DNA of 64,000 nt. It comes from Acidobacteriota bacterium. GTDB taxonomy: Bacteria; Acidobacteriota; UBA6911; RPQK01; JAJDTT01. The stretch is from contig OZ242374.1 of the NCBI GenBank assembly GCA_965209055.1, positions 2,976,001 to 3,040,000 on the forward strand, written 5' to 3'. The translations under genes were made by a program, and so were the position numbers. Within the stretch, counting starts at the first letter, position 1; each line of letters begins with the position of its first letter. The notes beneath the pieces are model-generated. The model saw only the letters and a program-made list of their open reading frames with translations. It searched no databases and was not told where the DNA came from. Of the stretch, positions 29,206 to 45,907 are shown in pieces.

Positions 29206-29302
29206 GACGGGAGCGACCCCCCCTTTTTGCCGCCCAGTGCGGGCGCGGGGGTGTTGCGCAATTCACATTTGCGCAGCACCCCCTGGGGGGGTCGCTCCCG
29301 TC
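29206..29302. repeat. Nested inverted repeats (large hairpin)
   Basis: Perfect 18-bp arms 29206-29223/29285-29302 enclose a 15-bp hairpin 29247-29261/29269-29283 with one G-T pair. Confidence 0.85.
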
Positions 29303-30030: not shown

Positions 30031-31119
30031 ATGGGCATCTACAAGGTGAAGGATCGCCGGGGGAGAAGACGCTATGTCGTCAGCAAGTACTGGCCGCACG
30101 GATCCGGTCGGCTTCGAATGTACGCCCCCAACTACCGGAGCGCACAGGCGCTTCAAACACGAATCGAGTCCAGCATCCTGGACGGCACATGGAAGCAGCT
30201 CAAGGAGGAACTCGCCGGCGGGAACCGCACCGTCTGGACGGTCCGGAGCTTCTACGAGCGTTTCTTCGAGGAGTACTGCAAACCTCGCATGCGCTCCCGG
30301 CGTCGCTATGCGCTCTCGTTCAAGAGCCTCAACGCCATGCTGGGAAACATTCCCCTGAAGGAGTTCCGACGCAAGGACCTGTACCGCTATGTCGCCAAAA
30401 GGAAGAAGCAAGTGCAGCCGGCCACGGTGAACCGGGACATTGCCGCCATCAGCAAGCTGTTTTCCTACGCGCTTGAGTGCGGAGAAGTGGACACGCACCC
30501 GCTGGTGAGATTCCCCAAACTCAAAGAACCCAAGAAGGTCTTCCGGCCCTTGACGGTTCAACAGTTCCGCGACCTGGTCGAGGCGATGGACAACCCCTGC
30601 CTGCAAGCCATGGTTGCGGTGATCGGCGAGACGGGGATACGGAAAGGCGAAGCGTTGTCGCTCACCTGGAAACGGGTGGACCTATCCCGGAGTCTGCTAT
30701 GGGTGGAGTTCACCAAGAACGACGAGCCGAGGGAGATTCCGCTCTCGAAGTATGCTGCTGGATACCTGACCGGGCTGGTTCGCTACCTGAACACGCCATA
30801 CGTTTTCGTCAACAGCCGGACTGGCACGAGATGGGTGAATCCGGACAAGCCGTTGCGCCGGGCCGCCGAGCGGGTGGGGTTGAAGGTCGGATTTCACGAC
30901 CTGAGACGATTCCGGTGCAGCCATTGGCTGATGCAGGGGGTGGACGTGAGAACGGTGCAGAAGCTGATGGGTCACTCGGCGATCAGCACGACCATGCGCT
31001 ACGCCGGGTACGTCAGTTCCCATGCGCTTGCCAGCATACGGGAGGCACAGGCTACCGAAGACTCACAAATGCGCCCGGCAACAAACAGGCAACAGGCAGG
31101 AAATAGGGGGAATGACTAG
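30031..31119 (+). CDS. Phage-type tyrosine integrase
   Basis: AGGAGG RBS; PATVNRD, TGIRKGE (R), TKND (K), HDLRR, LMGHS, MRY catalytic set intact. Confidence 0.95.
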   Translation: MGIYKVKDRRGRRRYVVSKYWPHGSGRLRMYAPNYRSAQALQTRIESSILDGTWKQLKEELAGGNRTVWTVRSFYERFFEEYCKPRMRSRRRYALSFKSLNAMLGNIPLKEFRRKDLYRYVAKRKKQVQPATVNRDIAAISKLFSYALECGEVDTHPLVRFPKLKEPKKVFRPLTVQQFRDLVEAMDNPCLQAMVAVIGETGIRKGEALSLTWKRVDLSRSLLWVEFTKNDEPREIPLSKYAAGYLTGLVRYLNTPYVFVNSRTGTRWVNPDKPLRRAAERVGLKVGFHDLRRFRCSHWLMQGVDVRTVQKLMGHSAISTTMRYAGYVSSHALASIREAQATEDSQMRPATNRQQAGNRGND

Positions 31120-31157: not shown

Positions 31158-31201
31158 GCGCCCCAAGCTCAGCAGGACAGAGCGCGGGACTGTTAGTCCC
31201 C
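31158..31201 (+). other. tRNA-like 5' half (acceptor strand, D arm, anticodon arm) overlapping attR
   Basis: GCGCCCC-AA-GCTC-AGCAGGACA-GAGC-G-CGGGA-CTGTTAG-TCCC; no T arm or 3' acceptor strand follows. Confidence 0.7.
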
Positions 31202-31720
31202 CCGTCCCCTTTGCGCCAATCCTCCAATTGAAGTTCGGCGGTTGAAAACCCCCGTTCCTTCTCCACGGTCCCACTCCCGGGCCATTTGCTTCAAATCCGC
31301 CACAATACTGCTGTAGGCGGGGTCGCCGTACAGGTTGCGCTGCTCCCAGGGGTCGTTCAGGAGATGGTAGAGGGACCCGTCCTCGTCGGGTACCCGCTCG
31401 TCCATGAAGAAGACCAGCTTCCATTCCCGGGTCCGGACCATGACCCGCCGTCCCCCGCTGCGGCGAAGTTCCTCGTAGGCATCTTCGCTGTGATCGTGCT
31501 CCGAGAAACAGGCCCGGCGCCACTCCCGGACCTCGCCCCGGATCAAGGGCAGCAGGCTCCGGCCCCGAATCCCGGAGGGCGGGTCGAAACCGGACAGCTC
31601 CAGCAGCGTCGGCAGGAAGTCCACCATCTCCACCGGCTCCGTCACCACCTTGCCCTGAGGCAGCAGCCCTGGAGCCCGAAGGATGAACGGGACCTTGACG
31701 TTGGTGTCGTAGAAATCCCG
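31193..31720 (-). pseudogene. 3' part of a split sulfatase
   Basis: DFYDTNVKVPFILRAPG...VDFLPTLLEL...GRSL...MVRTREWKL...LYHLLNDPWEQRNL is a sulfatase C-terminus; joins in frame to 43366-44366. Confidence 0.9.
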
Positions 31721-31780
31721 ATTGTCGGGTGTCCTGGTCTGGAAACCAACGGCCGAACGTATAATAAACCGGAGGTTGTA

Positions 31781-32767
31781 ATGGGAAAAGTCATCAACTT
31801 CAGACCGAGACGAGCCTGTCTGTTCAATGTGGAGACCATGGCCCGGATCAACACCAAAACCGAGTCGCCACGACTCACCCGAGCCCTGGAGAGCAAATCG
31901 GAGACCACGGCCAGAACCTACAGGAACGCCATAAACGGATTTGACCGGTGGGCCAACGGCCGCCCCGTCTCGGATGAGACTTTGGCCGAATATGTCACTC
32001 ACCTCCATGAGACCGGGAAGTCTCCTGCATATGTTCGAGTCTGCATTTCCGGTCTCCGGTTTCGGGAAAAGGCACTGGGAAGACGAGACCCTAAAGGCAT
32101 GGAGACCGGTATGGCCCTGGATATCTCCCGCAGGAAGGGCAGAGGCAGAGGGAAGGGACAGGCACCCCACCTCACTAAAGACCAGATTCAGAAAATTGGC
32201 GAGGTAGCGGTGTTGTCCGGGAGTCTCTGGGGCCTGAGAGACCGGGCCGTCATCTCCACCATGTTCGCGGCCGGTCTGAGAGTCTCTGAGGCTTGCGAGT
32301 TGGAGGTGAGAGACCTGGAATGCCTCGAAGACGGGAGCGGCCTGCTCACAGTTCGATTCTCGAAGACGGATTCAGAGGGTAAGGGATTCACCATGGGTCT
32401 GTCTCCCGGACCGGTCCGGCATCTTTGCGAATGGATAGAACGAGCTAGTCTCAGGGACCGGGATCCCCTATTCCCGGCGATTCATTCCAAGGGTGTGGAC
32501 AATTTCCAAACCCGGATTGTCAGATACAAGGCATCAACCAAGACCATGGCCCGGATCGTCTCAACTCGTGCTGAGGCTGCCGGGTTTCCCGGTGTGACAA
32601 GTCATTCCATGCGGCGGTCGTTTGCCGCTCATTTGAGTTTACAGGGTCTCCGAACTCATCAAATCCAAGAGGCGGGTAGGTGGACTTCACCTAATATGGT
32701 GCTCCAGTACACACAAGGGGCCCGGGCCACTCGGTCCAAAGTCGTGGCGGCCATGGCATGGGAGTAG
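31781..32767 (+). CDS. Cre-like tyrosine recombinase
   Basis: GGAGG RBS with TATAAT upstream; LRDRA, AGLRVSE, FSKTD, SHSMRR, GRW (Cre-type Trp), MVLQY. Confidence 0.92.
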   Translation: MGKVINFRPRRACLFNVETMARINTKTESPRLTRALESKSETTARTYRNAINGFDRWANGRPVSDETLAEYVTHLHETGKSPAYVRVCISGLRFREKALGRRDPKGMETGMALDISRRKGRGRGKGQAPHLTKDQIQKIGEVAVLSGSLWGLRDRAVISTMFAAGLRVSEACELEVRDLECLEDGSGLLTVRFSKTDSEGKGFTMGLSPGPVRHLCEWIERASLRDRDPLFPAIHSKGVDNFQTRIVRYKASTKTMARIVSTRAEAAGFPGVTSHSMRRSFAAHLSLQGLRTHQIQEAGRWTSPNMVLQYTQGARATRSKVVAAMAWE

Positions 32768-32878
32768 GCGGCCCCACCTTCGCGGTTCACTGAGAGTGAT
32801 GAGCTGTCCCGGCCTGCTTTGAAGCGGTGAGACGGACGTACAATAAAGGTGCCACTTTAATCACGAAGGGAGGAGACA

Positions 32879-33130
32879 ATGGAACTGATACCGCAGGAAT
32901 CAACGCGTGAGGATGTGCAGGATGCCTACAAAAGAGGTTTCCGGTCCGGTAACGAGTTAGGTCACCGAAAAGGGAAAACAGAAGGCTATCAGAGGGGCTT
33001 GAAGACAAAGGAACTACGGGAAGCCTTTGATAAGGGCCATGAGCTCGGAGAGGCGGAAGGCCACGCCATGGGTTTTACCAAGGGCTGGAACGCAAGAGGG
33101 AGAGAAAGAAATGAAGTTGATGCCGAATGA
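32879..33130 (+). CDS. Small hypothetical protein with GxxxG repeats
   Basis: GGAGGAG RBS; YKRGFRSG, YQRG, FDKGHELGEAEGHAMGFTKGW periodicity. Confidence 0.7.
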   Translation: MELIPQESTREDVQDAYKRGFRSGNELGHRKGKTEGYQRGLKTKELREAFDKGHELGEAEGHAMGFTKGWNARGRERNEVDAE

Positions 33131-33434
33131 CACGGAGCCGAAAATTCTTTTCTTTTATCTGAGCCTTGCCGCGAATGTGGAGCGTGCGGAGAAGAATCCC
33201 GGTATGCTCCCGGAAGTCAGTGAGCAGTGGAGAAGGGGAGTGGACGCTCTGCCACGGATGCACGAAGACGCCCCCGATTTGTGGCGATTACTCCAACAGG
33301 GTAAGGATACTCCCGAAGTTCGGGAGAGAATGAGGGCTGTTAGTCGGCGCCAACCGTCCGAACGGACAGATGCGGAGCAGGCATTTTTCCTATGGGTGAC
33401 AATCGCCCTTATGGTGCCTGTCACGGTCCATTAG
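33111..33434 (+). CDS. Hypothetical protein
   Basis: Overlaps the preceding ORF and converges on the portal stop. Confidence 0.55.
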   Translation: MKLMPNDTEPKILFFYLSLAANVERAEKNPGMLPEVSEQWRRGVDALPRMHEDAPDLWRLLQQGKDTPEVRERMRAVSRRQPSERTDAEQAFFLWVTIALMVPVTVH

Positions 33435-33438
33435 TGGC

Positions 33439-33594
33439 CTACACCCCGGCCAGACGTTCTGCATCCGCCGCAGACCATCCCTTGTCCCGCAAACGGGCGG
33501 CCATGGCCAGCCGTTGATTGAGCGGGACCAACCTTGCCAACACTGGCGAGGTGTCCAACATCACCGGACGTTCCAGCACCCTAGCGGTCTCGTC
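33439..33594 (-). pseudogene. Portal gene 3' end separated by the IS
   Basis: DETARVLERPVMLD...AERLAGV* continues the 35628-36500 frame once the IS and one repeat are removed (342 aa). Confidence 0.75.
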
Positions 33595-33722
33595 TTGGAG
33601 GGTGCGGACCCAACCGCCGCATGTCGTCGCTACCCAACTCCGCAAGGCGTCCGGCCTTGTCGTCGTGGAGTTTGGACCAAGACCCACTAAGGCACGGGGA
33701 ATCCCTAGAGACTCGCTCAGGT
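33595..33722. repeat. 128-bp direct repeat (target duplication), left copy
   Basis: Identical to 35628-35755. Confidence 0.92.
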
Positions 33723-35627
33723 CCTGACTTCGACGGTTTTGAACCGTAAGTTATTGATTTAATTATGCAAGTGTTCTCAGAGTACACTACAGAGCTAGGA
33801 AATGGAGAGCGGGGCGGGGTTCAACTCTGGGGACGATTTGGCGACAACAGCAGGGTCGTGGTCCGGCGGAGGGTGAGGCCGACCGTCTTGTAGAGCAAGC
33901 GCTGCTCCCGGGTGGAGCCGAAGGGGACCAGGTAGCGGTTGCCGTTGCCCTGATCGCGGATCAGCGAGACGGTCACGTTGCCGAGTTCCGCCAGGATTCG
34001 GTCCTCGCTCAGCGACGGCTGGCCGGCATGCTGCCGGGCGTACTTCCAGCGCAGGATGCGCAACAGCGCGAAAGCGACGTAACAGAGGGCGACGTGGGCG
34101 CGAACCCGGCGCTCAGTCCAGTGAAAGACCGGGCGTACCCGGAGCGTGTGTTTGAGCACCCGGAAGCCCTGCTCGATCCTCCACAACTCGGCATAATGCG
34201 CCCGGATCTGTGAGGCGGGGGGTTCGCCCAGGCTGGTCCAGACCCCGTGCAGTCCATCAAAGAGAGCATCGCGTTCGATCGCCTGGCGGTTGAGCGTGAC
34301 CGCATGGCGTTTCAGCTTCAGGAACCGTCCCGGGCGCCGCCCGAGCGGTTCTCCCTTCGCGATCTTCTCTTCGGCCTTCTTCACCGCCTGCTCTCGGGCT
34401 CGGGCGTCCCGGCGCGCCTTGCTCGGACAGTACCGCACCACCAGCCGGCGACCGTTGACTTGCCGTTCGGTCAGACGCCTCAGACGTCCCTTCCGGTCCA
34501 GCGGCTGTGGAGTCCACTCCTGCGGAGAGCCCAGGGCAGCGAAGTCGGCCCGCTTGAGCTGCCGGAGCCGTGCCGCGACCACCCAGTCCAACCCCGCCTT
34601 TGTCAGCGCCCGCAGGTTCTTGTCGCTCAGCAACCCGGCGTCGGCCACCACCACCGCCCGTCCAACTTCGAACTGCTCTCGCAACTCCTGAAGCATCGGC
34701 AACAGCGTCTTGACCTCCGTCGTGTTCCCCGGGAACAAGCGATACCCGACCGGCAACCCTTCCGTCGTCTGCATCAACGCCAGCACCACTTGCGAGCGAT
34801 ACGGTTTCCCGTCCTTGCTGTATCCCTTGCGTCGCAAATCGTCTTCCACTTCGGTCGCGAAGGAGAGCGTCGTCGTGTCCAGGAACACGACTTGCACCGG
34901 CCCTCCCAACAAGCCCCGGACGGTTCCGTCCAAATGCTTCAGCAATCGGCTCTGCCGCTGACGATTCAGGCGATCCATCATCCGGTAGACCCGCTCCAGG
35001 GGGAGGTTCACCCCCTGCTCGGACAACTCCGCCGCCAGGTGGCGCTTGCTTTTGCCGGGCGCAGCCAGGCGCGCCAGCATCAACTGCCGGAACACCCGCT
35101 CGGACCCCCGTTGATTCCGGGGCCAGAGGCGAGCCAGACCGAGATCGTCGTAGAGTTGGCCGAAGACCTCGTGAAAGCCCAGCTTCAGATCCTTTTCTCC
35201 CTGGAGCTTCCGGGCGTCGGCAATCGGGATCGGCCCCAAAGCCTTCCGCTCCCGCCGCGCGGCCACCGCCTGCTCGGCCAGATACGCCGGCGGGAACAGC
35301 GCGGGCTGCCGTTGCTCCAGCAGGCGCACCTTCTCGTACTCGGCGACCCGGAGGAGTTCCTCAAGTGCGGGCCCCTCGGGAGCGGAACCCATGGAGCGGA
35401 TCAGGCGCTGGCGGGGTTGACGGTGTTCGTTGCGGTAAGACTCGACAATTTGGACGACGACATTGGGCGTGTGTCGGCGGCGAATCTGTCGCACAAACAT
35501 GGGGAAAGTCTAACAGAACAATAAGATAATATCAATATTCCAGGTACACTACAGACGGGCCCAAAACTCAACCTCAATGGGCTCAAACGTTTCCGAGCCT
35601 CAGCGCCGATAATTTGTCGAAGTCAGG
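33723..35627 (-). mobile_element. IS1634-family insertion sequence (1905 bp)
   Basis: 12-bp terminal inverted repeats CCTGACTTCGAC / GTCGAAGTCAGG; single DDE transposase. Confidence 0.92.
33821..35500 (-). CDS. IS1634-family DDE transposase
   Basis: MFVR...QIVESYR, FLDTTT, GYSKD, VVADAG, LWRIEQGFRVLK, RPVFHW. Confidence 0.93.
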   Translation of the reverse strand: MFVRQIRRRHTPNVVVQIVESYRNEHRQPRQRLIRSMGSAPEGPALEELLRVAEYEKVRLLEQRQPALFPPAYLAEQAVAARRERKALGPIPIADARKLQGEKDLKLGFHEVFGQLYDDLGLARLWPRNQRGSERVFRQLMLARLAAPGKSKRHLAAELSEQGVNLPLERVYRMMDRLNRQRQSRLLKHLDGTVRGLLGGPVQVVFLDTTTLSFATEVEDDLRRKGYSKDGKPYRSQVVLALMQTTEGLPVGYRLFPGNTTEVKTLLPMLQELREQFEVGRAVVVADAGLLSDKNLRALTKAGLDWVVAARLRQLKRADFAALGSPQEWTPQPLDRKGRLRRLTERQVNGRRLVVRYCPSKARRDARAREQAVKKAEEKIAKGEPLGRRPGRFLKLKRHAVTLNRQAIERDALFDGLHGVWTSLGEPPASQIRAHYAELWRIEQGFRVLKHTLRVRPVFHWTERRVRAHVALCYVAFALLRILRWKYARQHAGQPSLSEDRILAELGNVTVSLIRDQGNGNRYLVPFGSTREQRLLYKTVGLTLRRTTTLLLSPNRPQS

Positions 35628-36500
35628 TTGGAGGGTGCGGACCCAACCGCCGCATGTCGTCGCTACCCAACTCCGCAAGGCGTCCGGCCTTGTCGTCGTG
35701 GAGTTTGGACCAAGACCCACTAAGGCACGGGGAATCCCTAGAGACTCGCTCAGGTCTCCCGACAGGGCCGCGTGAGACTTCATGAGTTGGTCCAGGTCAT
35801 TGGGTGCGAGTCTCACGGGCAGAGGGTAAGGCCCTGAACCGTCCATTGCCGAACGTCCGGCCAGAGGGAGGAATGAGATACCTCCGGCCAGTTCCCGGAG
35901 TTTCTGAGCCTTTTCTCTCAGGCCCTCTGGATTGTCATTCCAGGTTGCATGAATCGCAGTTCCACGGGGGGAGCCCGCGTCTAGTTCAATGGCCAAATCG
36001 ACCACGGCCAGTTGACGGGAGGCAATGCCGCAGTCTCTCCAATTCTCCCCCCGCCACGGTAGGGTCCGGGAGGGACGAATCACGGCATGGACGACTTGCT
36101 CAGGCCGGACGTTACGGTGAACCTCCGAGCGGTCAGGCCCTTCCACCGTGAGGGTCTTGTAGCGGAGCATTGAGGCGGTCCCGGTCAGTTCGTAGTCCAC
36201 CACGGGCCGCAGGGTCAGGCTATCGTCCAGGAATAGGACGGCCTCCCCTTCCTCAATGATGCAATTCGCTATCCAGGGCCAGAGCCCGGAAAAGACGGGG
36301 TCATAGTCAGAGGCCGCTAGAACGCCCTCCAAGCGTCTGGCACAAGCCATAAGGACGGCGGGCCTATACCCCCATGAAAAGACCGCGGAATGGACGGGGA
36401 GACCTGCCAGGGCCGCTATGAGAGGGTCTCCATAACCTGCCAGGCTGCGGTGTTCCTCTGCCCGTGGAGGCGGTTCCAGGTTCAGACTGATTAGAGCCAC
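35628..36500 (-). pseudogene. HK97-like portal protein, 5' part (IS-truncated)
   Basis: Lies after capsid and protease; GEAVLF, EQVVH and LGIPRALVG resemble portal motifs; divergent. Confidence 0.65.
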
Positions 36501-36991
36501 GAGGGAACCTCCCGGACTCTCTCAGTCGGTCTATGCCGTTTCGCAACCTGGACCGAGGAATCCGAATAGGCCGGACGGTCCACAATGCCGAGACCGGAGA
36601 GTCTCGCCCGTTGGATGGTCCGCAGAGTGCCGGACCACGTTTCCCGCGTAGCCTGGAACTCAAGCGAGAGACCCCGCAAGACGCCGGACTCTACAAGGGC
36701 CAGCGTATCGTCTGCGTCCCTTGTCTGCGGGAGTTCGGCGCGAATCTCCAACTGAGTGGCACTGTCCCTCAGTTCGAGGCCGCCCCCGCCGGATCTGGCG
36801 AGAGGCCGGGACCGTTGGTGCTGGACGTTCAGGATAACGTCCAGGGAGGAAACATCACCAAACGCCCCAGGCTGGAACCGCTCCCGGAAGTCAGGGAAGA
36901 TTCGGGCCTCCGAACCGTAGACAATGGCGACGCCGGAAAGGGTCCGCCCTTCCCGGCGCAGCTCCACAAATCGCCGTTCCAGGGTCTTCAC
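36491..36991 (-). CDS. HK97-family prohead protease
   Basis: RTLSGVAIVYG, FRERFQPGAF, LNVQH, GLSLEF, GIVDRPAY. Confidence 0.93.
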   Translation of the reverse strand: MKTLERRFVELRREGRTLSGVAIVYGSEARIFPDFRERFQPGAFGDVSSLDVILNVQHQRSRPLARSGGGGLELRDSATQLEIRAELPQTRDADDTLALVESGVLRGLSLEFQATRETWSGTLRTIQRARLSGLGIVDRPAYSDSSVQVAKRHRPTERVREVPSWL

Positions 36992-37000
36992 GGTGGACCC

Positions 37001-38206
37001 TTAGCTGGCCAGCTTGAACCGGAGGCGGCCAAATCCGTCGGCCCGTAGAACCTTGAGGTTCCAAAGGGCGACGGCGGTCAGCACGACTTGGCCGGTCTTG
37101 GCCTTTGTGATGCGGTCTGGAATGAGGGTGACTCCCCGCCATACCGGAAAGACCGCGTGAGTGGCATTGATCCGACGGGCCGCTACTGCGCCCTGGATAT
37201 GGGCCGCCGTCTTCTCCGGGACGTGAGAAGACACCCTCACGCCTCCACTCTTGCGGGTGAGGGTCTCATAGGCACTTTCGTTTGTGCCTCCGGCGGATTC
37301 CGTGGTCCGGTACACGGACTCAGTGTGAGAGTAGGTCTGACTTCCGAGCACCATCCGGACCTGATCGGTCATGGAGGCAAAGTGGCCGTCCACTTGATCG
37401 GTCAGGGACTTCTTATAGGCCGTCCAGTCCGCTACGGCGGTGGGAGCGGTGGGAGCGGTCAGACCTCCCCCTAGCAGACCCTCTGCGGTGTCGGTCAATA
37501 GCAGTTCATCAAACTTGCTACTGAGGGCCATTCTGAGGTTATCCCTCAATGCGTTTTCCAGTCCGGCAAGGCCATACTCGTCTTCCAGGTTCCAGTAGAA
37601 AGACGCTTGCGCCCGTTTCCGGTCCAACACACTGGCCGTAAATGCGCCCGTGGTCTCCGTGGCCGCCGCACCCTTGGCCGGAGTTCGAACCGTGGCACCG
37701 GTGGTCAGGACCGTATAGGTCTGGTCTCCCACTCCCACCGTCGGCATGGAGACTCCCAAAAAGTCTATGAGGCCGTCGGGGAAGATTTGCGGAATAATCG
37801 GGTGCTGCATCTGACCGACGTCGGAAGGTGCGGGAGTCACTGCCCGTTCCTCACCTCTCAACTGCTCAATGGCGATTTGATTTGAGGCGAGACCGAAATG
37901 GGTCTGCAACTCGGCCTCCGCTCCCTCCGTCGCCCGTTGATTGAGGGCCGCCCCTAGCACGTTACCCACAGAGGCGCGACTGACAAGGCGGTCTAGCTCC
38001 CTCTGCTCGGCATCAATCACGGTGACTTGAGGTGCTGGATTCTCTCGAACCGCGTCCCGGTATTCGGTCTCAATCTGAGGCAGTCTTTCCCGGAGTTCGG
38101 TGAGTTCGGTATTCTCGGCCTCCGTCCGGTCTCCCTTGCGTTCCAACTCGTTCATACGAGTACGCTTTTCAGAGAGTCTCACTTGCAGACGTTGAAGTTT
38201 AGTCAC
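37001..38206 (-). CDS. HK97-fold major capsid protein with N-terminal coiled-coil scaffold
   Basis: GTG start after RBS; E/R-rich coiled coil of about 80 aa; about 400 aa; C-terminal AKTGQVVLTA...VLRADGF; adjacent to the protease. Confidence 0.8.
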   Translation of the reverse strand: MTKLQRLQVRLSEKRTRMNELERKGDRTEAENTELTELRERLPQIETEYRDAVRENPAPQVTVIDAEQRELDRLVSRASVGNVLGAALNQRATEGAEAELQTHFGLASNQIAIEQLRGEERAVTPAPSDVGQMQHPIIPQIFPDGLIDFLGVSMPTVGVGDQTYTVLTTGATVRTPAKGAAATETTGAFTASVLDRKRAQASFYWNLEDEYGLAGLENALRDNLRMALSSKFDELLLTDTAEGLLGGGLTAPTAPTAVADWTAYKKSLTDQVDGHFASMTDQVRMVLGSQTYSHTESVYRTTESAGGTNESAYETLTRKSGGVRVSSHVPEKTAAHIQGAVAARRINATHAVFPVWRGVTLIPDRITKAKTGQVVLTAVALWNLKVLRADGFGRLRFKLAS

Positions 38207-38207
38207 T

Positions 38208-38528
38208 TTAGTTTCCCCCTGTATACAGGTTTTCAAGATATGCGGCCCACTGCCGCCGAACCGGCGGGACTTTATTCATGCGTTCCCGCCGGTGGACTTC
38301 CAAATGACAATCGACACAGAGCAAAAGCACGTTATCCAGGCTATGCCGTCCACCCTCACTCAACGGCCTTACATGGTGGAGTTCACAACGGCGGGAACCT
38401 AGACGTGAGGTGCGGCCGGCGGTGATTCTGTGGCCGCACTTCTCGCACTTGAACCGTGCGCGATTGACCAAGACCCACCGGCGCAAGCGGTGCTGATCTG
38501 GCCCTACTTGTCTGTGCCATTCGCTCAT
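38208..38528 (-). CDS. HNH endonuclease (packaging-associated type)
   Basis: CEKCG, ELHHVRPLSEGG, DNVLLLCVDCH. Confidence 0.9.
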   Translation of the reverse strand: MSEWHRQVGPDQHRLRRWVLVNRARFKCEKCGHRITAGRTSRLGSRRCELHHVRPLSEGGRHSLDNVLLLCVDCHLEVHRRERMNKVPPVRRQWAAYLENLYTGGN

Positions 38529-38582
38529 TCTGAGTCCATAATATTGGATAAGGTGTTGCAATTGCAACAATCACAACCGAAA

Positions 38583-38924
38583 ATGTTGGATATGCAGCAG
38601 TCGATAGGCCATCAAGTCCATTACGACGCGCCCGTAATGAGGCGCGCCAGTTCCTCCCAATGCTCATACCGAACGCTATGGCGCAAGGTGCTATGGTCCG
38701 CAGTCAGGGACTATCACGGGCTGGAAATGACTAGCCTTGTCAAAAACCTCCACGCCTCCCCGGTCCAGATCCAGGCAGACGCTAGGGCATGGGTCCACTC
38801 TGAGGAGACCGGACCCGCCACGTTCGAATGGGTAGCGGAGTTGCTCGGATTCTCCCCGGACGCTCTGCGCCAAGCTATTGACCGAATGGATAAAAGATCC
38901 ATAAACAGAAGGTTTAGGCCGTGA
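38583..38924 (+). CDS. Phage-type hypothetical protein
   Basis: LWRKVLWSAVRD...DARAWVHS...TFEWVAELLG; directly upstream of terL. Confidence 0.6.
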   Translation: MLDMQQSIGHQVHYDAPVMRRASSSQCSYRTLWRKVLWSAVRDYHGLEMTSLVKNLHASPVQIQADARAWVHSEETGPATFEWVAELLGFSPDALRQAIDRMDKRSINRRFRP

Positions 38925-39053
38925 ACAGGTCACTAAGTATGCACCTATCAGGGATTAACCATGCATTAGTGGGCTGCCCGAGGCCCCTATATGCAAGTTT
39001 CCAAACCGGCTTGCTCCCCAAGTCTTAGTTATAGCAACGTAAACGGCTGATTT

Positions 39054-40544
39054 ATGAACTGGAAGTACGAAACATTAATAACTCTGAGGCCGTTCCAACA
39101 TGAGTTCATAAAATATGCACTTATGCCGGGAATCCATACGGCGGCCTTGTCACTGCCGAAAGGGAACGGCAAGAGCACTCTGGCCGCGTTTCTGGCCTTG
39201 CAGACCCTTCTCCCGGAGTCTCCGCTATTCGTCCGGGGAGCGGAAAATCATATCGTGAGTAGTTCGGTGGGCCAGTCCCGCCGTAGCACGTTCGGAATAC
39301 TCCGGCGGATGTTGGCGCAGGTTCCGAACTGGGGAAGGGACTACCGGGTGACGGATAACGCAACCTCCGCAAGAATCGTCCACCCTCAGAGTCTCACTGA
39401 GGTCTCGGTACTCCCGGCCAACTCAAAAGCGGCGCAGGGCATCGTCCATGCGCGTCTGGTCATTGCAGACGAGCCCGGAGCCTGGAAGGTGGGCGACGGG
39501 GAAGAGATGCACGACACCCTACAGGCCACGGTAGGGAAACCGGGAGTGAACCTCCGTTTGCTCTACATTGGCACCCTTGCTCCGGCGGGCCGGGGTCATT
39601 GGTGGCCGGAGTTGATAGAGGATGGAGGCGACGGCCTCACCCACGTCACCTTTTACGGGGGAACGCCGGAGGAAGTAGCGGAGCGGTGGGATACGTGGCC
39701 TTTGATCCGCCGGAGCAATCCGTTGATGAGTCACTTCCCGGAGTCCCGGCGGGTGCTACTCGCAGAGCGGGACAAGGCCCGGAGGGATTCGAGGTTGCAG
39801 GCCCGATTTTGCAGCTATCGCTTGAACTGCCCTTCTCGGGACCGCTCGGAGATGGTGTTGACCGTGGCGGACTTCGAGAGGGCCTCAAATCGCACTCTGC
39901 CAGTCCGGGACGGTGCTCCCGTCGTCGGTCTCGATTTGGGCCAGGGGAGGGCCTGGTCTTCTGCCGTCGCCCTCTGGCCCTCTGGCCGTTGTGAGGCCGT
40001 GGCCGTCGCTCCCGGCCTCCCGTCAATCGAGGCGCAAGAGCGGAGGGACCGCGTACCGAAAGGCACCTACCGGAGACTGATAGAGGTGGGGTCTCTGACC
40101 GTCGCAGAGGGCCTGAGAGTGCCTCCCGTGGCCTCCATCATGCGGCAGATCCGGGAATGGCAGCCACGGGTGATCCTCTGCGACAGGTTCCGGTATGGGG
40201 AGGTTTTGGACTCAAACCCGCCCTGTCTGGTAGTTCCACGGGTGTCCCGGTGGTCTTCCAGCACGGAAGACATTACCCACCTCCGCAGAATGGCCGCAGA
40301 CGGGCCCTTGTCGATAGCGGTGGGGAGCCGTCACCTACTGGCCGCCTCTCTGAGTGCGGCCAAAGTCATCACCGACGACGCCGGGAACGTGAGACTGAGC
40401 AAGTCAAAGGAAAACACGGCAAGGGACGACGTGGCGGCAAGCCTGATTCTATCGGCGGGGGAATGGGGGAGGCGGTATGCAGGCGAGACTCAAGAACCGG
40501 TTTTTGTATTCGCCCCTTCTAACGGTCCCGTCGCGGTGATGTAA
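39054..40544 (+). CDS. Terminase large subunit
   Basis: LRPFQ adenine motif, PKGNGKST Walker A, LVIADE Walker B, SNP, VVGLDLG nuclease, RDDVAAS. Confidence 0.9.
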   Translation: MNWKYETLITLRPFQHEFIKYALMPGIHTAALSLPKGNGKSTLAAFLALQTLLPESPLFVRGAENHIVSSSVGQSRRSTFGILRRMLAQVPNWGRDYRVTDNATSARIVHPQSLTEVSVLPANSKAAQGIVHARLVIADEPGAWKVGDGEEMHDTLQATVGKPGVNLRLLYIGTLAPAGRGHWWPELIEDGGDGLTHVTFYGGTPEEVAERWDTWPLIRRSNPLMSHFPESRRVLLAERDKARRDSRLQARFCSYRLNCPSRDRSEMVLTVADFERASNRTLPVRDGAPVVGLDLGQGRAWSSAVALWPSGRCEAVAVAPGLPSIEAQERRDRVPKGTYRRLIEVGSLTVAEGLRVPPVASIMRQIREWQPRVILCDRFRYGEVLDSNPPCLVVPRVSRWSSSTEDITHLRRMAADGPLSIAVGSRHLLAASLSAAKVITDDAGNVRLSKSKENTARDDVAASLILSAGEWGRRYAGETQEPVFVFAPSNGPVAVM

Positions 40545-40824
40545 AACCTACCTCCCGGCGGGTCTTTTCGTTTCGCTTGGCCTGTAAAATGGCATGACCC
40601 AAAACGCAGGTTACAGCGAACACTCCGAGGCGGTACAAAAAGTAAGTCAGACCTACCAACGCGGCCAACAAAATCAGTAATTCCACCTCACGGCCTTCCT
40701 TTTGAAGTGAGCGGGAAAATCCACTTTCTCTCAGGTCTCAAAACTCCCCCTCTCAGACTCTCCCATTTTCTACCAAGACGGCCAGAATAGGGTGACTATC
40801 TGTGTTGGCTCAGGTAACACCAAA

Positions 40825-41847
40825 TCACGCGTACTGATTCAGGCGTGATTTGTAGTGCCACGGGAAAGGCCCCGGACGGTGAAAGATACGGTGAACCGCA
40901 CGGCCAGACAGGCCCCAACCATTCGCCACTTCCCGCATTGAAAAACCTAACGCCACTGCTACAGAAATTGCGTGGTCCCTGTCTTCGGTTCGCTGCCTCC
41001 GCTTGTCCGCTCCGATTCTCGCCCTTGTCCGTTGCCGCCGAATCCAGGCCGGGCAATGCCAGTTTCTGGCCGCCCACGCTTGGCGGTATTCCGTCACTTT
41101 TTTCACCGTGGCCCGGACTTCACTTGCAGGGAGTCTCCCCCGGCCCTCTTTCTCGAAGACTTGATTGCGAGTCTCTGCGGCCACGGCCACGTCGATACCC
41201 CGGTTTTCCTTACGTCCGGCCCAACGCATCAACTCTTGGAACATATCCACGTTCCGGCCAATTCCGGTTCGGACTTTGCACGGCATCTTCCAGCCAAAGG
41301 GAATCACCTCTGCGAGCTCCTCCAGGGAGTAACCGCCCTTGTGTTTCCAATGGGTAACGGTGGACCTATCGGCCCAATGCATAGGGTTTCGGGTGAGGAA
41401 TCCGCTGTATCCAGGGTCCGCCGAGGTCTGGCCGTGGTAGTACGAATCGACCCGTTTCAAGAGTTGTAGCGGTTTCGGTCTGGCCTCCGGGTAACGGTGG
41501 ACTGGTTTTCTCAGGGTCCATACGGCATGACAGTGGCCGTTGGCCTTGTTTTGGACAATCCAGGACGGTTCCCGGACTCTCGGCCAGACGATGGCCTCCC
41601 ACATGGCTTGTTCGTCGTCGCAGTCGAGAATCAGGCCGACGTAGGTATTAGCGGCATGGAGTTGTAGAAACGGGTGCCTCCATGCATTGGCCGGGGGGAC
41701 GTGGATCCGAGATTTGAAGTCTCTGCGCCGGGATGCGCCGCGCCCGACGTATCCGCAAACCTTGGGGCGGATATGAGCATCACTCAGGCCGTGGAGCCTC
41801 ACCTTCGGCGGGGCGTCTTCAATGGGGAGTCTTGCCGGTACAGGCAT
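40825..41847 (-). CDS. ColE2-type replication initiator (Replicase + PriCT + HTH)
   Basis: LILDCD, NGHCHAVWTL, DPGYSGFLTRNP, GIGRNVDMF, LPASEVRATVK, C-terminal HTH. Confidence 0.88.
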   Translation of the reverse strand: MPVPARLPIEDAPPKVRLHGLSDAHIRPKVCGYVGRGASRRRDFKSRIHVPPANAWRHPFLQLHAANTYVGLILDCDDEQAMWEAIVWPRVREPSWIVQNKANGHCHAVWTLRKPVHRYPEARPKPLQLLKRVDSYYHGQTSADPGYSGFLTRNPMHWADRSTVTHWKHKGGYSLEELAEVIPFGWKMPCKVRTGIGRNVDMFQELMRWAGRKENRGIDVAVAAETRNQVFEKEGRGRLPASEVRATVKKVTEYRQAWAARNWHCPAWIRRQRTRARIGADKRRQRTEDRDHAISVAVALGFSMREVANGWGLSGRAVHRIFHRPGPFPWHYKSRLNQYA

Positions 41848-41940
41848 GGTTCCCTTCGATACGGAAATACTCGGTCACGTCAATTCTTCCTTTTCACCCC
41901 TCGCTCTCAGTCGCCAAACATCCGAGCCGGGGTGGGTCTA

Positions 41941-42309
41941 CTACTTCCCGGCAGGAATCAACGTGGAGGAGTCCATTCTCGCCAGCTTCAAGAGTTCCAC
42001 CCGATCCGCCGCCGGATGGGGATAGTTGTCGTCTCCACTGGTCCGGTGACTCAGGACGTACTCGGTCACCAAGGCCCGAATCACCCGGTTCAACGACACT
42101 CCGTTAAACTGGCTGGCCCAGCGGAGCATCTCTTTTTCGTCCGCAGTGAAGCGGACGCAAAATGTCTTCGGCTTGCCCCGAGCCGGGACCAAGAATGTCC
42201 CCTCGGGCCCAATCACTATAGTGGCCTGGACTTTGCCGTTGCGGTCCATGGGGATTTCTCCCATCACCCGCGCCCCTGCAAACTCATCACCTCTTTGCAG
42301 TTTCTTCAT
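41941..42309 (-). CDS. Putative ribbon-helix-helix DNA-binding protein
   Basis: GGAGG RBS; TFCVRFTADEKEMLRWAS...VSLNRVIRALV. Confidence 0.6.
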   Translation of the reverse strand: MKKLQRGDEFAGARVMGEIPMDRNGKVQATIVIGPEGTFLVPARGKPKTFCVRFTADEKEMLRWASQFNGVSLNRVIRALVTEYVLSHRTSGDDNYPHPAADRVELLKLARMDSSTLIPAGK

Positions 42310-42472
42310 TTTCGGGTCCTCCAAATGAAAATTGATATCACTGGAAATGATATCACGAATGGAAGGGGAGAGTCCAAACCCTAGACGCACGAGTGGGCGG
42401 GGTGTCGGGAATCCATGACGGACGGCAAATTTGTCAGATCCTCGTTCTATAATCCCCGGTTTTCTGGAGAGA

Positions 42473-42715
42473 ATGATGGAAATGGAATTGGAGCAGAGGC
42501 TAGACGAGATCGAACGGAAGATTGAAGCAGATACGGTCCTCCTAATTGGACTATTTGATCTTGCTTGTACCCCTATAGAGGAACGGAACAGGGAGGGGCA
42601 ACTCGCCTTCATCGCCGATAAGCTCGGTCTTCGATACGAGGGACTGGCTCCGACCAAACGCTACTTGGAGGAGATTGGGAACACATTGCGCGAACTTCAA
42701 AACTACGGAAATTGA
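42473..42715 (+). CDS. Small hypothetical protein
   Basis: TATAAT and GGAG upstream; helical 80-aa ORF. Confidence 0.55.
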   Translation: MMEMELEQRLDEIERKIEADTVLLIGLFDLACTPIEERNREGQLAFIADKLGLRYEGLAPTKRYLEEIGNTLRELQNYGN

Positions 42716-42718
42716 GGG

Positions 42719-42802
42719 TCCCCGGCGTGGGACTCGAACCCACACGACCTCTCGGCCACCAGATTTTAAGTCTAGCGCGTCCGCCAATTCTGCCAACCGG
42801 GG
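42719..42802 (-). tRNA. tRNA-Leu(UAA)
   Basis: Acceptor CCCCGGT/GCCGGGG, A73, anticodon arm CTAGA-CTTAAAA-TCTGG, long variable arm, GTGGG-TTCGAGT-CCCAC; CCA not encoded. Confidence 0.92.
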
Positions 42803-42899
42803 ACATTCCCAATACTGATCCAAACTGCGAGTTCCGTACAGGCCAGCAGTCCGGCACAGAGACGGGAACGGTTATCGGTAGCCGCCGAAAGGGGGGGTG

Positions 42900-43262
42900 A
42901 TGAACCTCGTAATCTGTGGATTGATTTATGACGCAATGGGGGTGTCTCTCTTGGGTCTGTCGTTCATCAAAAAGCCAAAAACGATCCGCGATGAAGTTGG
43001 AACGTATTGGAATCTGAACGAGAAGTTGCTCCTGGGGAATGTGAAAAAAGACTTGGATGGAGCAGTCGGAACCTCGATTCTTCTCCTCGGATTTATTTTC
43101 CAAACAATCGGCCAATTTTGTTTCCGGGCCGGGCCGTGGCCCTGGGTGCTTCTTCTTCTTCTTTTTCTCTTCGTCTGTACGTATGCCTCAATGGTACGTG
43201 GCGTCTGGATCCGATACAGAATCAAAAGCGTCAAGCGGACACTGGAAGAATCTGAAGTTTGA
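42900..43262 (+). CDS. Small membrane protein (3 hydrophobic segments)
   Basis: AT-rich ORF with three transmembrane-like stretches. Confidence 0.65.
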   Translation: MNLVICGLIYDAMGVSLLGLSFIKKPKTIRDEVGTYWNLNEKLLLGNVKKDLDGAVGTSILLLGFIFQTIGQFCFRAGPWPWVLLLLLFLFVCTYASMVRGVWIRYRIKSVKRTLEESEV

Positions 43263-43303
43263 CCACGAGTCGTTCGAGCCGATTCCGCTAGGCGGGGACA
43301 AAG

Positions 43304-43332
43304 TTGACGCGGGAATCAGGGCGCACTATAAG
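43304..43332 (+). promoter_or_regulatory. Outward-facing sigma70-like promoter near attR
   Basis: TTGACG-N17-TATAAG. Confidence 0.55.
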
Positions 43333-43365
43333 GAAGGCACTGTTTTCAGACGGGGTCTATCCCAA

Positions 43366-44366
43366 AAATCCCGTTTCTTCCAGTTGCGGTGCTCTCCAAG
43401 TTGGAAACCCTGATCGGAGTTGACGACGATGATGGTTTCAGTCAGGCGTCCGGCCTGTTCCAGGACCGAAAGCAACCTTCCGACCTCCCGGTCCACGGCC
43501 CGGATCATGCCGTAGTAAGTTCCCCGGGCGAGCCCGATCTCTTCCCGGCTCAGGTGGGGAGCGCCGCTGTAGACATGGATATTCTCCCGCTCGTAACGGG
43601 GCTTTCCCCGGGTCTCCCCGGGTGTCGGAAAAGGCAGATCGATTCGGCTGGGATCGACGAACCAGGAGGGCGTGGTGGAGCAGGCGACGTGCGGCGCGTG
43701 GAAGGAGACGCGCAGGAAGAAGGGCTCCGGCGATCGAACCAGTTCCCGCAGGCGGCCGAGCGCCAGGTTTCCCAGCCGGGCCGTGCGGATCTGGCCGGGA
43801 GGAATGTCGAGCAGGCCCCCGATCATCCATTGATGGGTCTGGGTTCGAACCACCGACAGGAGGCGGCGGCGCCACTCGGAGGGCAGGTGCGGGGTGGGCC
43901 GTCCCCGGTTGTCGAGATACCGGGGAGGGTCGCCCAAGAGACGCCAATCCTCCCGGAAGGCGTGGGCCTTGCCCACGTTCTCGGGGGTGATGCCGGCTTC
44001 GGTCCAGGCCTTGAGGAGGTTCGGGGTTTCGTTCCGTGACCGGGTCCGGTAGCGTCCCGGCTTCGAAGCCGGCTTTCCCATGGCCATGACGCCGGTCTGG
44101 TGCGCGTAGAGACCGGTCTTCATCGAGGTCCGCGATGGGACGCAGACCGGATTCTGGACGATGGCCGTCTCGAAGCGGACCCCCTCGCGGGCGATACGGT
44201 CCATGTGCGGCGTATCGGCCCAGGGCCGGCCGTAGCAGCTCAGCGTATCCGCCCGCCCGTCGTCCAGCATGATCCAGAGGACGCTGGGCGGGGAGGTTGA
44301 GGCCGCGGCGGCGGTTCCACTTCCGGCGAGCAGAAGGAGATAAACGGAGAGGCCGTATCGGGTCAC
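43366..44366 (-). pseudogene. 5' part of a split sulfatase
   Basis: Signal peptide, WIMLDD, CVPSR formylglycine motif, SDQGFQLGEH...KRDF at the junction. Confidence 0.9.
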
Positions 44367-45907
44367 GGAAACTTCGGCTGTCCGCCTCTCCGCTGGGACC
44401 AGGGCTGGTTCAGATCCATCGCCACGGGATCCTCCACTTCCTTCTGGCGAACCCGAAGCCGGGCCCACATTTCCCGAACCTGGTCCTGGTAGTCCGGAAG
44501 AAAATAGAGGTTCCGCATCTCCTTGGGGTCGCGGCCCAGGTGGTAGAGCTCCCCGTCGCCGGCGGAGCTCACCGTGAGCTTCCAACCCTCGGGCGTGACC
44601 AGGGTCCGGTGCTGGTAGACGTGCCGCCGGTTCCAGGGATGGCTGAAACCCTGTTCGTCGCTGACGACCAGGATGTCCCGGTCGGGGAACTCCCGTCCCG
44701 AGCGCAGGTCAGCGGCCCAGCTCTCTCCCTGCAGGTGCTCGGGCAGCGGCTGCCCCATCAGGTCCAGCAGGGTCGGTGTCACATCCACCTGGCTCACGGG
44801 CTTCCCGACGCGCCGGGAGCGGTCCCACAATCCCGGAACCGAAAGCAGGAACGGTACCTTCGCCGCCTCCTCGTAGCTGTTCATCTTGGACATGAGGCGG
44901 TGGTCGCCCAGCATCTCGCCGTGCTCGCTGGTGAAGACGACGATGGTGTTCTCCTCCAGCCCCAATTCCCGAAGCCGGTCCAGCACGCGGCCCACCATTT
45001 CGTCCACCAGGGTGACCAGGCCCCAGTAGCGGGCCATGGCGTCCCTCAGCTCCTCGACGGTCTGGGGATAGGCGATGGGAAGCTCGCCCCGGATCAACGC
45101 CAGCCGCATCTGCCGCTTGGCGAAGGATACGGTGGGGTCCATCGGTTGGAAAAAGGAATCGGGGATCGGCATGTCGGCCGGGTCGTAAAGGTCCCCGTAG
45201 ACGTTGGTGAAGGGCGGCCCCTGCTTGTGATCGGCGAAGGCGTGGGGCGCCAGGAAGCTCAGATAGAGGACGAAGGGCCGGTCCTTGTGCTGCTCCAGGA
45301 ACCGGATCCCCCGCCGGGCCAGGTAGACCGGCTTGGAGAGTTCCTTGGGCAGGCGGTTGGCCAGGTCGCGGGAATGGCCGTAGGGCTCGTCCGCCTCGAT
45401 CCCCTTCCCCTTCAGGAAGTGGTAGTAGCCGGAGCGCTGGGAATGATCCTGATCCTCGGACCACCATCTTTGATAGATCTCGGTGCTGTCGAAGTCGGTG
45501 AAGCCCCGCTGCTTGAAGATCTCGTTTCCCAGGTGCCACTTGCCGTAGTAGGCGGAGGCGTACTCGGGGTGCTGCAGCATTTCCACCAGGATCGGCACCT
45601 TGGGATCGAGGGGGAGGTTGTTTTTCCATGAGCCGTGCTTATGAGGGTAGAGCCCGGTGAGCAGGCTGGCCCGGGAGGGAGTGCAGACCGGGGCGGACAC
45701 GTAGAAGGAGTCGAAGACGAAGCTTCGCCGGGCCAGTCGGTCCAGGTGGGGCGTCCGGATCTGCTTGTTGCCGTAGACGCCCAGCGTGTCGACCCGCTGT
45801 TGGTCGGTCAGGAATACGATCAGGTTCGGCGGCTTCTCTTCAGCTTCCGCAAAGGGAGAGCCATGGAGAAGGGCCGCGGCCAGGAGAGTTAGGATCCAGC
45901 GTTGCAT
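44363..45907 (-). CDS. Sulfatase (S1, Cys-type)
   Basis: PNLIVFLTDQ, CTPSRASLLTG, GKWHLG, TSEHGEMLGDH. Confidence 0.95.
   Translation of the reverse strand: MQRWILTLLAAALLHGSPFAEAEEKPPNLIVFLTDQQRVDTLGVYGNKQIRTPHLDRLARRSFVFDSFYVSAPVCTPSRASLLTGLYPHKHGSWKNNLPLDPKVPILVEMLQHPEYASAYYGKWHLGNEIFKQRGFTDFDSTEIYQRWWSEDQDHSQRSGYYHFLKGKGIEADEPYGHSRDLANRLPKELSKPVYLARRGIRFLEQHKDRPFVLYLSFLAPHAFADHKQGPPFTNVYGDLYDPADMPIPDSFFQPMDPTVSFAKRQMRLALIRGELPIAYPQTVEELRDAMARYWGLVTLVDEMVGRVLDRLRELGLEENTIVVFTSEHGEMLGDHRLMSKMNSYEEAAKVPFLLSVPGLWDRSRRVGKPVSQVDVTPTLLDLMGQPLPEHLQGESWAADLRSGREFPDRDILVVSDEQGFSHPWNRRHVYQHRTLVTPEGWKLTVSSAGDGELYHLGRDPKEMRNLYFLPDYQDQVREMWARLRVRQKEVEDPVAMDLNQPWSQRRGGQPKFP

Follow-up and report, generated by a model that had tools for sequence, protein, structure and literature searches.

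A tail-less, head-encoding integrative element in an Acidobacteriota sulfatase gene, probably a broken copy of a phage satellite from a family of about 10-kb elements

The stretch of DNA considered here, the window, comprises 64,000 nucleotides of contig OZ242374.1 from the Acidobacteriota assembly GCA_965209055.1 (positions 2,976,001 to 3,040,000); the genome is referred to as G000. It contains a sulfatase gene on the minus strand that is interrupted by an element encoding a phage-type head, packaging proteins, a recombinase, and a replication initiator. The insert measures 11,653 bp (31713-43365), to which is added an 8-bp repeat, AAATCCCG. The Pfam Sulfatase domain is divided between two open reading frames (ORFs) of the minus strand, 43326-44585 matching profile positions 1-256 and 31193-32170 matching positions 259-300. 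The host flanks proper are the N-terminal part of the sulfatase at 43374-44585 (minus strand, E = 6.4e-30) and the C-terminal part at 31193-31721 (minus strand), which also matches SGSH_C (4.4e-23). The repeat is found in direct orientation at both junctions, at 31714-31721 (the left core, attL, with the crossover region) and at 43366-43373 (the right core, attR), and across a single copy of it the sulfatase protein reads on as NWKKRDF-YDTNV.

The two sulfatase halves are contiguous in all five same-genus genomes that were searched with the N-terminal part (G007, G010, G011, G013, and G014). These orthologs show 80-88% identity and have an open frame of 506-1016 amino acids, and the C-terminal part follows the N-terminal part without a gap. 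The empty site reads TAGAAATCCCG(T/C)TTC in four of the genomes and TAGAAATCCCTTTTC in the fifth. The empty form is also found in contigs of public sequencing runs, where a joint from 31712 to 43366 omits the 11,653 bp and the eight letters of the repeat fit either side. In two runs of one sample this joint has a depth of 5-7, the occupied form one of 13-20; on its shorter side the joint has only 22 letters, which makes it weak when taken alone. A run from another study, labelled as a sponge metagenome, has the joint at a depth of 193. Because the 8-bp repeat, the intact sulfatases of the same genus, and the exact empty-site joint all agree, the ends are correctly placed and the insert forms a separate mobile unit. 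An earlier interpretation made from the letters of the window (the sequence-only reading) had proposed a complete small element with defined ends, and the split sulfatase and its empty counterparts bear this out.

The head genes follow the order capsid-protease-portal, with terL on the opposite strand, as had been described before. The major capsid protein (37001-38206, minus strand) probably starts at a GTG codon at 38206, after the stop codon of the HNH gene. Its sequence gave no match in Pfam, PHROGs, NCBIfam, or a single-sequence search of PDB, and a capsid profile (A1) matched no chain among the PDB sequences at E ≤ 0.01. The AlphaFold model (pLDDT 79.5) displays N-terminal helices at residues 13-114, resembling a delta or scaffold region, followed by an HK97 fold. 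Foldseek returned at least 321 matches to it at E ≤ 1e-3, with probability 1.0 to phage capsids and encapsulins, and PF05065 is present in homologs of the protein. The neighboring gene (36491-36991, minus strand) encodes an HK97-type prohead serine protease of the S78 family (PF04586, 1.1e-22; TIGR01543, 3e-14). Since the sequence libraries gave nothing for the capsid protein and for the N-terminal piece of the portal described below, a fold search and a family hidden Markov model (HMM) were needed to recognize them.

The packaging genes lie next to the capsid gene. A packaging-associated HNH endonuclease is encoded at 38208-38570 on the minus strand (PF01844, 2e-10; phrog_1271, 6e-12), and the large terminase TerL at 39054-40544 on the plus strand (phrog_9, 3.5e-42; TerL_nuclease weak). 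Upstream of terL is a small conserved ORF (38583-38924, plus strand), which by its position is a candidate for the small terminase TerS; homologs are found at the equivalent position in the related loci L031 (jackhmmer, 4e-34) and L004 (1e-26). The sequence-only reading had stated that no clear TerS gene is present, which holds as far as family matches go, but it overlooked this candidate. No tail, connector, lysis, holin, or defence family was matched by the ORFs of the element in Pfam, PHROGs, NCBIfam, or PADLOC, and the earlier statement that tail, connector, and lysis genes are not recognizable in it stands. Two proteins of the relatives, a conserved one encoded after the protease gene and a small P-loop protein, were not found in the window element either.

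The portal gene is split by an insertion sequence (IS) of 1,904 bp (33724-35627, minus strand). The IS is bracketed by its target duplication, a direct repeat of 129 bp without mismatch (33595-33723 and 35628-35756; spacing 2,033 bp). The transposase (33821-35500, 559 amino acids) scores 335.9 bits against the NCBIfam model transpos_IS1634 (NF033559, cut-off 100), and is hence an IS1634-type DDE transposase. G000 holds four identical 1,904-bp copies of the IS with adjacent duplications of 129, 7, 0, and 0 bp, and long target duplications of variable length are typical of the IS1634 family. Subtraction of the IS together with one duplication copy (11,653 - 2,033) leaves an element of 9,620 bp, in line with the 9.6 kb estimated earlier.

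The N-terminal piece of the portal is encoded at 35628-36500 and the C-terminal piece at 33439-33723 (both minus strand), each with one copy of the duplication. Both corresponding ORFs were matched by an HMM of 40 portal homologs, 35586-36521 over positions 8-305 (E = 6e-29) and 33442-33750 over positions 254-350 (4e-12). Sequence arithmetic places the two pieces in the same frame once the offset of 2,033 bp is corrected for, and the overlap between the two HMM matches is the pattern expected of a clean split with a 43-codon duplication. The N-terminal piece alone gave no match in Pfam, PHROGs, or NCBIfam, and a single-sequence PDB search of it was likewise empty. The portal family profile (A2) does match PDB portals, namely 9i8c (2e-9) and 6te8/6tba (5e-6), the latter from RcGTA, the gene transfer agent of Rhodobacter capsulatus. 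The predicted structure of the intact portal ortholog of L031 (pLDDT 65.8) gave 65 Foldseek matches at E ≤ 1e-3, and those listed are almost all portal or neck-complex proteins; the RcGTA portal 6tba is the best (1e-8). A relative with about 87% identity, carried in run X5, has a portal gene without the IS. Because the IS splits the portal gene, this gene is judged to be inactivated and the window copy is predicted to be unable to make heads at present, which makes it a recently inactivated copy. The IS had been seen in the sequence-only reading, but not its effect on the portal.

A Cre/Xer-type tyrosine recombinase of 328 amino acids is encoded 60 bp from the left end (31781-32767, plus strand; PF00589, 1.2e-18), with GGAGG before its start. 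It is not of the integrase type usual in phage-inducible chromosomal islands (PICIs); it aligns over residues 62-314 to residues 65-328 of Cre (2e-7), and to the XerC-like 4a8e (1e-9). Homologs are located at the ends of the same-genus elements L001, L002, L003, L004, and L031. Between the recombinase and the portal lies ORF135 (33027-33434, plus strand), which has no assigned function; ORF83 (32879-33130), likewise unassigned, overlaps it, and it is uncertain which of the two is real. ORF135 gave no match in Pfam, PHROGs, NCBIfam, or PADLOC and no homolog in the related loci.

The right arm of the element encodes a plasmid-type replication initiator, Rep (40825-41847, minus strand), of the PF03090 Replicase family (1.2e-20). 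With initiators of 4-9 kb plasmids it shares 26-30% identity, and 2,473 plasmid records match it, while neither Rep nor TerL has a match among PDB sequences. Before rep lies an ORF of 122 amino acids (41941-42309, minus strand) with GGAGG upstream, a possible ribbon-helix-helix (RHH) regulator to judge from sub-threshold matches to DUF6290 and NikA-like proteins. A tRNA-Leu(UAA) gene follows at 42716-42803 (minus strand, ARAGORN), and then ORF121 (42897-43262, plus strand), of low G+C content, whose translation is a small protein with three hydrophobic stretches and no family match in Pfam, PHROGs, NCBIfam, or PADLOC. The arm as a whole has a lower G+C content than the head module and stands in the place of the connector, post-protease, and P-loop genes of the relatives. 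Except for weak matches to Rep (in L055) and to the RHH-like protein (in L082), it has no homologs in the other loci. Partition or mobilization genes were not found in the element, PADLOC gave only generic HNH matches for the accessory ORFs, and a scan for promoters and terminators gave nothing usefully above shuffled sequences. The gene set that had been read from the letters (capsid, protease, portal, HNH, TerL, plasmid Rep, Cre-like recombinase, and tRNA) is confirmed throughout by Pfam, PHROG, HMM, fold, or ARAGORN evidence.

Some further features of this arm may be mentioned. G000, a genome with a G+C content of 60-69%, has 68 tRNA genes, among them six for tRNA-Leu(UAA), two of which are identical; the copy of the element is unlike the five others and the most divergent of them. 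The shift in leucine TTA and TTG codons (64/269 in the element against 40/278 in five neighboring genes) is too small to argue that it has a role in codon usage. A search for repeats near rep yielded short ones only. At 42330-42356 the tandem 12-bp repeats AATTGATATCAC and AAATGATATCAC, 15 bp apart, overlap a promoter-like site before the RHH-like ORF, and this pair could be an operator.

The capsid protein has many homologs. A word-indexed search found at least 510 of them, many on contigs of 7-13 kb, and an exhaustive search of 1.84 billion representatives gave 2,256 at E ≤ 1e-3, 1,541 at E ≤ 1e-10, and 494 at E ≤ 1e-30. By tblastn against 50,697 GenBank phage records neither the capsid nor TerL had a match at E ≤ 1e-3. 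Locus scans with a 27-sequence capsid alignment yielded 44 loci from species-representative genomes, four from IMG/VR, and 10 from JGI metagenomes. The hosts of the 44 loci belong to Acidobacteriota, Chloroflexota/Dehalococcoidia, Alphaproteobacteria, Gammaproteobacteria, Thermodesulfobacteriota, Binatia, and others.

The ORFs of the 58 loci and of the window, 59 sources altogether, were all clustered in order to count synteny. The capsid cluster is present in 58 of the sources, TerL in 52, portal (c3) in 48, HNH in 47, and protease in 45, and in most of its sources the HNH gene lies immediately upstream of that for the capsid. The genes recur in the order integrase, small ORFs, TerL, HNH, capsid, in some cases a small P-loop protein, protease, a protein of 100-120 amino acids that is conserved, and portal. 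Adjacent to the integrase, the small ORFs encode among others HTH_17/AlpA proteins (seen in L027, L046, and L049) and HTH_36 proteins. A Rep homolog was found in just one of the 58 other loci (L055), as a weak match. The ColE2-type Rep is, by this comparison, peculiar to the window copy and no trait of the class, and the proposal of a class built on a ColE2-type replicon does not hold; its typical members have AlpA/HTH_17 and HTH_36 proteins.

Connector genes are found in the relatives, such as Phage_HCP in L031 and L006 and HK97-gp10_like in L013, L036, and L003. When homologs of these are included, head-closure, neck, or gp10-like genes are found in 19 related loci in total. The lack of connectors that had been noted is accordingly a property of the window copy. 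The 100 post-portal ORFs of 37 loci gave no match in the tail category of PHROGs. At six more distant capsid matches of the same genus (tblastn identity of 24-34%), TerL adjoins the capsid match in all cases, HNH is present in four, protease in three, portal in four, and an integrase nearby in three, and none of their 94 ORFs matched the PHROG tail category. All relatives examined, with capsid identities from 68% down to about 28%, are small head-only elements, and a full-length tailed prophage was not found around any of them. Within the genus its presence is variable, with five of 15 family genomes, G000 included, carrying it, and the insertion sites differ. A literature search gave no description of such elements in these phyla; most subscription journals were outside its scope, and the supplements of PMC13669383, a paper with 536 capsid-bearing mini genomes, may list some. 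The family thus apparently consists of undescribed head-only elements of about 10 kb, is large, and extends over many environmental bacterial phyla.

Three elements in G011 and G014, which belong to the same genus, were bounded with G000 as the empty-site reference. L031 has a length of about 9.2 kb with a 15-bp junction overlap and lies within a sodium:solute symporter gene, L002 of about 8.45 kb with an 8-bp overlap, and L003 of about 9.9 kb with a 4-bp overlap. L004 sits in another sulfatase gene and is degraded. For other phyla direct repeats were sought between the integrase side and the portal side, which gave 15 rows, 11 of which were tested. Ten of these 11 repeats fall precisely on a tRNA gene end, and the corresponding elements measure 9,444-10,314 bp: L018 (tRNA Lys, 9,444 bp), L056 (Ala, 9,557 bp), L049 (Lys, 9,667 bp), L013 (Asn, 9,711 bp), L024 (Ser, 9,957 bp), L027 (Cys, 10,021 bp), L017 (Asp, 10,055 bp), L007 (Met, 10,085 bp), L025 (Arg, 10,269 bp), and L021 (Glu, 10,314 bp). 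The repeat of L033 was rejected as an attachment (att) site, as it lies in two different tRNAs. The 13-bp matches of L003, L012, and L028 were dropped, that of L003 being in conflict with its synteny boundary, and the repeat of L051 is instead a terminal overlap. L051 is a circular contig of 10,002 bp with a 127-bp overlap, and L036 another of 9,794 bp with a 55-bp overlap and a coverage of 1463 in the contig name. The bounded or circular relatives number at least 16, come from several phyla, and span 8.4-10.3 kb.

A few other observations concern single relatives. In L006 (3470-5272), L036 (7688-9772), and L022 (6713-7903) the post-protease domain of about 100 amino acids is fused to an extension of 300-600 amino acids without a recognizable family. 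A small P-loop protein of about 145-190 amino acids with weak AAA_33/AAA_16 similarity is encoded between capsid and protease in 18 related loci (e.g., L017:11188-11619), an unusual place for an NTPase. Just beyond the tRNA-Asp attachment site of L017, a gammaproteobacterial relative, lies a BrnT-type toxin gene (15505-15813; PF04365, 2.8e-26). G014 has eight capsid matches in seven places, as one capsid gene is split (L003, L004, L031, and L077-L080); some of these loci are intact and some degraded.

The insert is probably a copy of a capsid-forming, tail-less integrative element, most likely a phage satellite that borrows tails in the manner of the capsid-forming PICIs (cf-PICIs). A satellite that forms its own capsids and takes tails from a helper is suggested because the gene set, the tight size, the att sites, the absence of tails, and the docking proteins of the relatives all point in this direction. 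The window element is best read as belonging, in broken form, to a new and smaller lineage of such satellites. Upon induction, an intact copy would be excised as a circle of about 9.6 kb, which would replicate from its own PF03090 Rep. Small procapsids would be assembled from the HK97-fold capsid protein with its scaffold-like region, the S78 protease, and the portal. A cos mechanism dependent on HNH would then cut and package unit-length DNA, and the product of the small ORF upstream of terL might serve as TerS. The filled heads would finally be joined to tails of a helper phage, for which the relatives appear to bring their own head-closure and neck proteins.

Several results weigh against the view that the element is a satellite of this kind. 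As to possible helpers, PF10145, PF04984, PF04860, and PF04865 all went unmatched in G000, as did PF10145 and PF04984 in five other genomes of the genus; this negative covers a small number of tail families, and the genome would not harbor a helper that is virulent. No joint of an excised attP circle was found in the run contigs that hold the region, contigs being known to drop rare forms, and in the source sample the element has a depth of 13-15 against 13-21 for its flanks, i.e., no copy-number excess. The TerS candidate has no family match, and ESM Atlas gave just unnamed clusters of similar length. Connectors were not detected in the window element with Pfam, PHROGs, an HMM of the family post-protease protein, or jackhmmer from six seeds, nor was HTH_17/AlpA, the possible RHH ORF being the one regulator candidate there. 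Among the relatives, PHROG head-closure, Neck1, or adaptor proteins follow the portal in only seven of 37 portal-bearing loci (E ≤ 1e-3). Two of the five close same-genus copies are damaged, the capsid gene of L002/L064 by a stop codon and L004/L066 by a stop codon, a frameshift, and an IS, and much of the family in this genus may be decaying. The satellite lifestyle itself, with helper, particle, induction, and transfer, is read from the genes. The public runs that hold the region include none listed as RNA.

The closest described systems are the cf-PICIs, such as EcCIEDL933 and EcCI2. Like these, the element is integrative, lacks tail and holin genes, and encodes integrase, replicon, HNH, TerL, HK97 capsid, protease, and portal, and its relatives carry AlpA-like genes and connectors. 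The order capsid-protease-portal, which had been taken to set the element apart, is no distinction, as a preprint reports capsid-protease-portal-connectors in proteobacterial cf-PICIs (10.1101/2022.09.08.507074). The packaging genes precede the head genes in the present family and do not follow them. At 9.62 kb the element is indeed smaller than cf-PICIs, as had been claimed; these have a median of 14 kb (15.4 kb for EcCIEDL933), and the family range of 8.4-10.3 kb falls about 30% below this median. The hosts of the family belong to Acidobacteriota, Chloroflexota, Alphaproteobacteria, and Thermodesulfobacteriota, among others, and not to Enterobacteria or Firmicutes. The PDB bank in which capsid profile A1 had no match at E ≤ 0.01 includes the EcCI2 entry 9gyi, and in the fold search 9gyi_B appears at rank 29, no better than generic HK97 capsids. 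By profile and fold comparison a sequence kinship with the known cf-PICI clades is accordingly not indicated.

SatelliteFinder defines a cf-PICI by at least nine of 11 core components and the absence of tail and holin genes. The window element has an integrase at one end, HNH, TerL, a portal (interrupted by the IS), protease, and capsid, and neither tail nor holin. An AlpA-, MerR-, or Stl-type regulator was not found in it, nor were the connectors present in the 19 related loci. For the primase-replicase component, which SatelliteFinder represents by five pri-rep profiles, the PF03090 initiator is a candidate, and for TerS the small conserved ORF upstream of terL. The window copy further differs in its Cre-type recombinase, which inserts into coding genes, in its PF03090 Rep, and in having no recognizable AlpA, TerS, or connectors. 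These features do not place it within the defined cf-PICI family. Satellite P4 and the classical PICIs, including the pathogenicity islands of Staphylococcus aureus (SaPIs), are also integrative elements of about 10 kb with own replicon and helper dependence, and their small capsids hold about 10-11.6 kb. These, however, use helper capsid proteins and have no capsid, portal, or TerL of their own (PMC10085698). 'Twilight-zone' mini HK97 genomes of less than 11.6 kb have been described by Aguilar et al. (2026; PMC13669383). The group detailed in that paper comes from the human gut and has no portal, terminase, or connectors, and the other mini genomes are said there to be no homogeneous group. 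The present family has TerL, HNH, and portal, and is by this description set apart from the detailed group.

It is rather unlikely that these elements spread without a helper, as autonomous minimal viruses or self-transmissible capsid elements of about 10 kb whose tail-less or minimally tailed HK97 particles enter cells by themselves. In that case, to which the same low probability is given, they would be the smallest self-sufficient HK97 members (Duplodnaviria), with own heads, unit-length packaging, and no conventional tail, and would occur as swarms of up to eight copies in genomes without a recognizable tailed prophage. Entry might make use of the large variable protein that some members have fused to the post-protease domain, or take another route. 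Six genomes of the genus do show no tape measure or sheath family, though G014 has eight capsid matches; the circular 9.8-kb contig L036 has very high coverage; the extensions in L006, L036, and L022 are a possible adsorption device; and the papers on HK97 genomes below 11.6 kb leave such lifestyles open. Yet the relatives encode neck or tail-completion and head-closure proteins, the known role of which is to join tails, and no receptor-binding, tail-tube, or lysis family was found. ESM Atlas yielded no usable lead on the large extension, the scores for the 694-amino acid protein of L036 being 0.75. No bacterial HK97 virion is known that does without a tail. That a small ColE2-type plasmid acquired a head module and, as a phage-plasmid-like episome, was integrated by accident is improbable. 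The PF03090 Rep and possible RHH regulator, resembling the Rep of 4-9 kb plasmids, the lower G+C content of the right arm, and the absence of the Rep module from relatives, as a recent fusion would predict, agree with such a hybrid. The recombinase at the end and the precise insertion at an 8-bp core speak against it, as do the single-copy depth, which shows no episomal excess in the source sample, the total size inside the narrow range of the family, and the lack of partition and mobilization genes; replication modules are normal in satellites. A phage-plasmid combines a complete phage, tail and lysis genes included, with plasmid replication and partition and persists as an episome; the element has no tail, lysis, or partition genes and is integrated at single-copy depth.

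The view of the element as a deletion remnant of a full tailed prophage, which the sequence-only reading had named as an outcome that would overturn its proposal, is largely refuted and very improbable. Only head genes are left, the portal is disrupted by the IS, and some same-genus copies have stop codons and frameshifts, which would fit such a remnant. The ends are precise and an empty site exists, however, at least 16 bounded or circular relatives from several phyla all measure 8.4-10.3 kb, none of the relatives examined, at any distance, lies within a tailed prophage, and capsid and TerL have no tblastn match in the 50,697 phage records. A capsid system domesticated by the host, similar to a gene transfer agent (GTA) or an encapsulin, is hardly to be expected either. 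The portal and capsid models do resemble parts of RcGTA, among many others, and the two share a small HK97 head. GTAs are non-mobile and vertically inherited, have their own tail, and package host DNA. The present element, by contrast, has att sites with empty counterparts, a recombinase, a replicon, and no tail; its presence varies (five of 15 genomes), its insertion sites differ, and it disrupts the host genes into which it inserts. Neither a syntenic position conserved between species nor the packaging of random host DNA is seen. That the element packages its own genome is indicated by TerL, HNH, and the narrow size range.

Other mobile DNA is found around the element. Beyond the 3' end of the sulfatase gene, and outside the element, a tyrosine integrase is encoded at 29818-31119 (plus strand) of the window. 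It is present in multiple copies, 26 of full length by tblastn in the 6.08-Mb genome, with 76-100% amino acid identity and one copy 100% identical, and resembles an expanded element carried by its recombinase. In the region upstream of it an 18-bp inverted repeat, perfect and with a spacer of 61 bp, is located at 29206-29302. At about 9092-9255 of the window two families of repeats of about 165 bp, resembling miniature inverted-repeat transposable elements (MITEs), are represented; their copies show 82-95% identity and are numerous in G000 and in the G014 loci L003, L004, and L031. Several MITE-like repeats lie in and around the degraded element L004.

So far, capsid-forming satellites of about 14 kb have been described in Enterobacteria, other Proteobacteria, and Firmicutes, and the present element is a chromosomal example, with clean boundaries, of a much smaller head-only lineage of about 10 kb. 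It is a large lineage, with 494 capsid clusters at E ≤ 1e-30; it is spread over at least six environmental phyla and has no relative at BLAST level among sequenced phages. The range of 9.4-10.3 kb and the existence of intact relatives make the capacity of the capsid directly testable. If the elements should prove to be helper-free, they would be the smallest HK97 viruses known. If they are satellites, they would give a practical lower size for a genome that carries a complete HK97 head and packaging machine, and the parasitism of phages by capsid-forming elements would be far wider and older than the known clades suggest.

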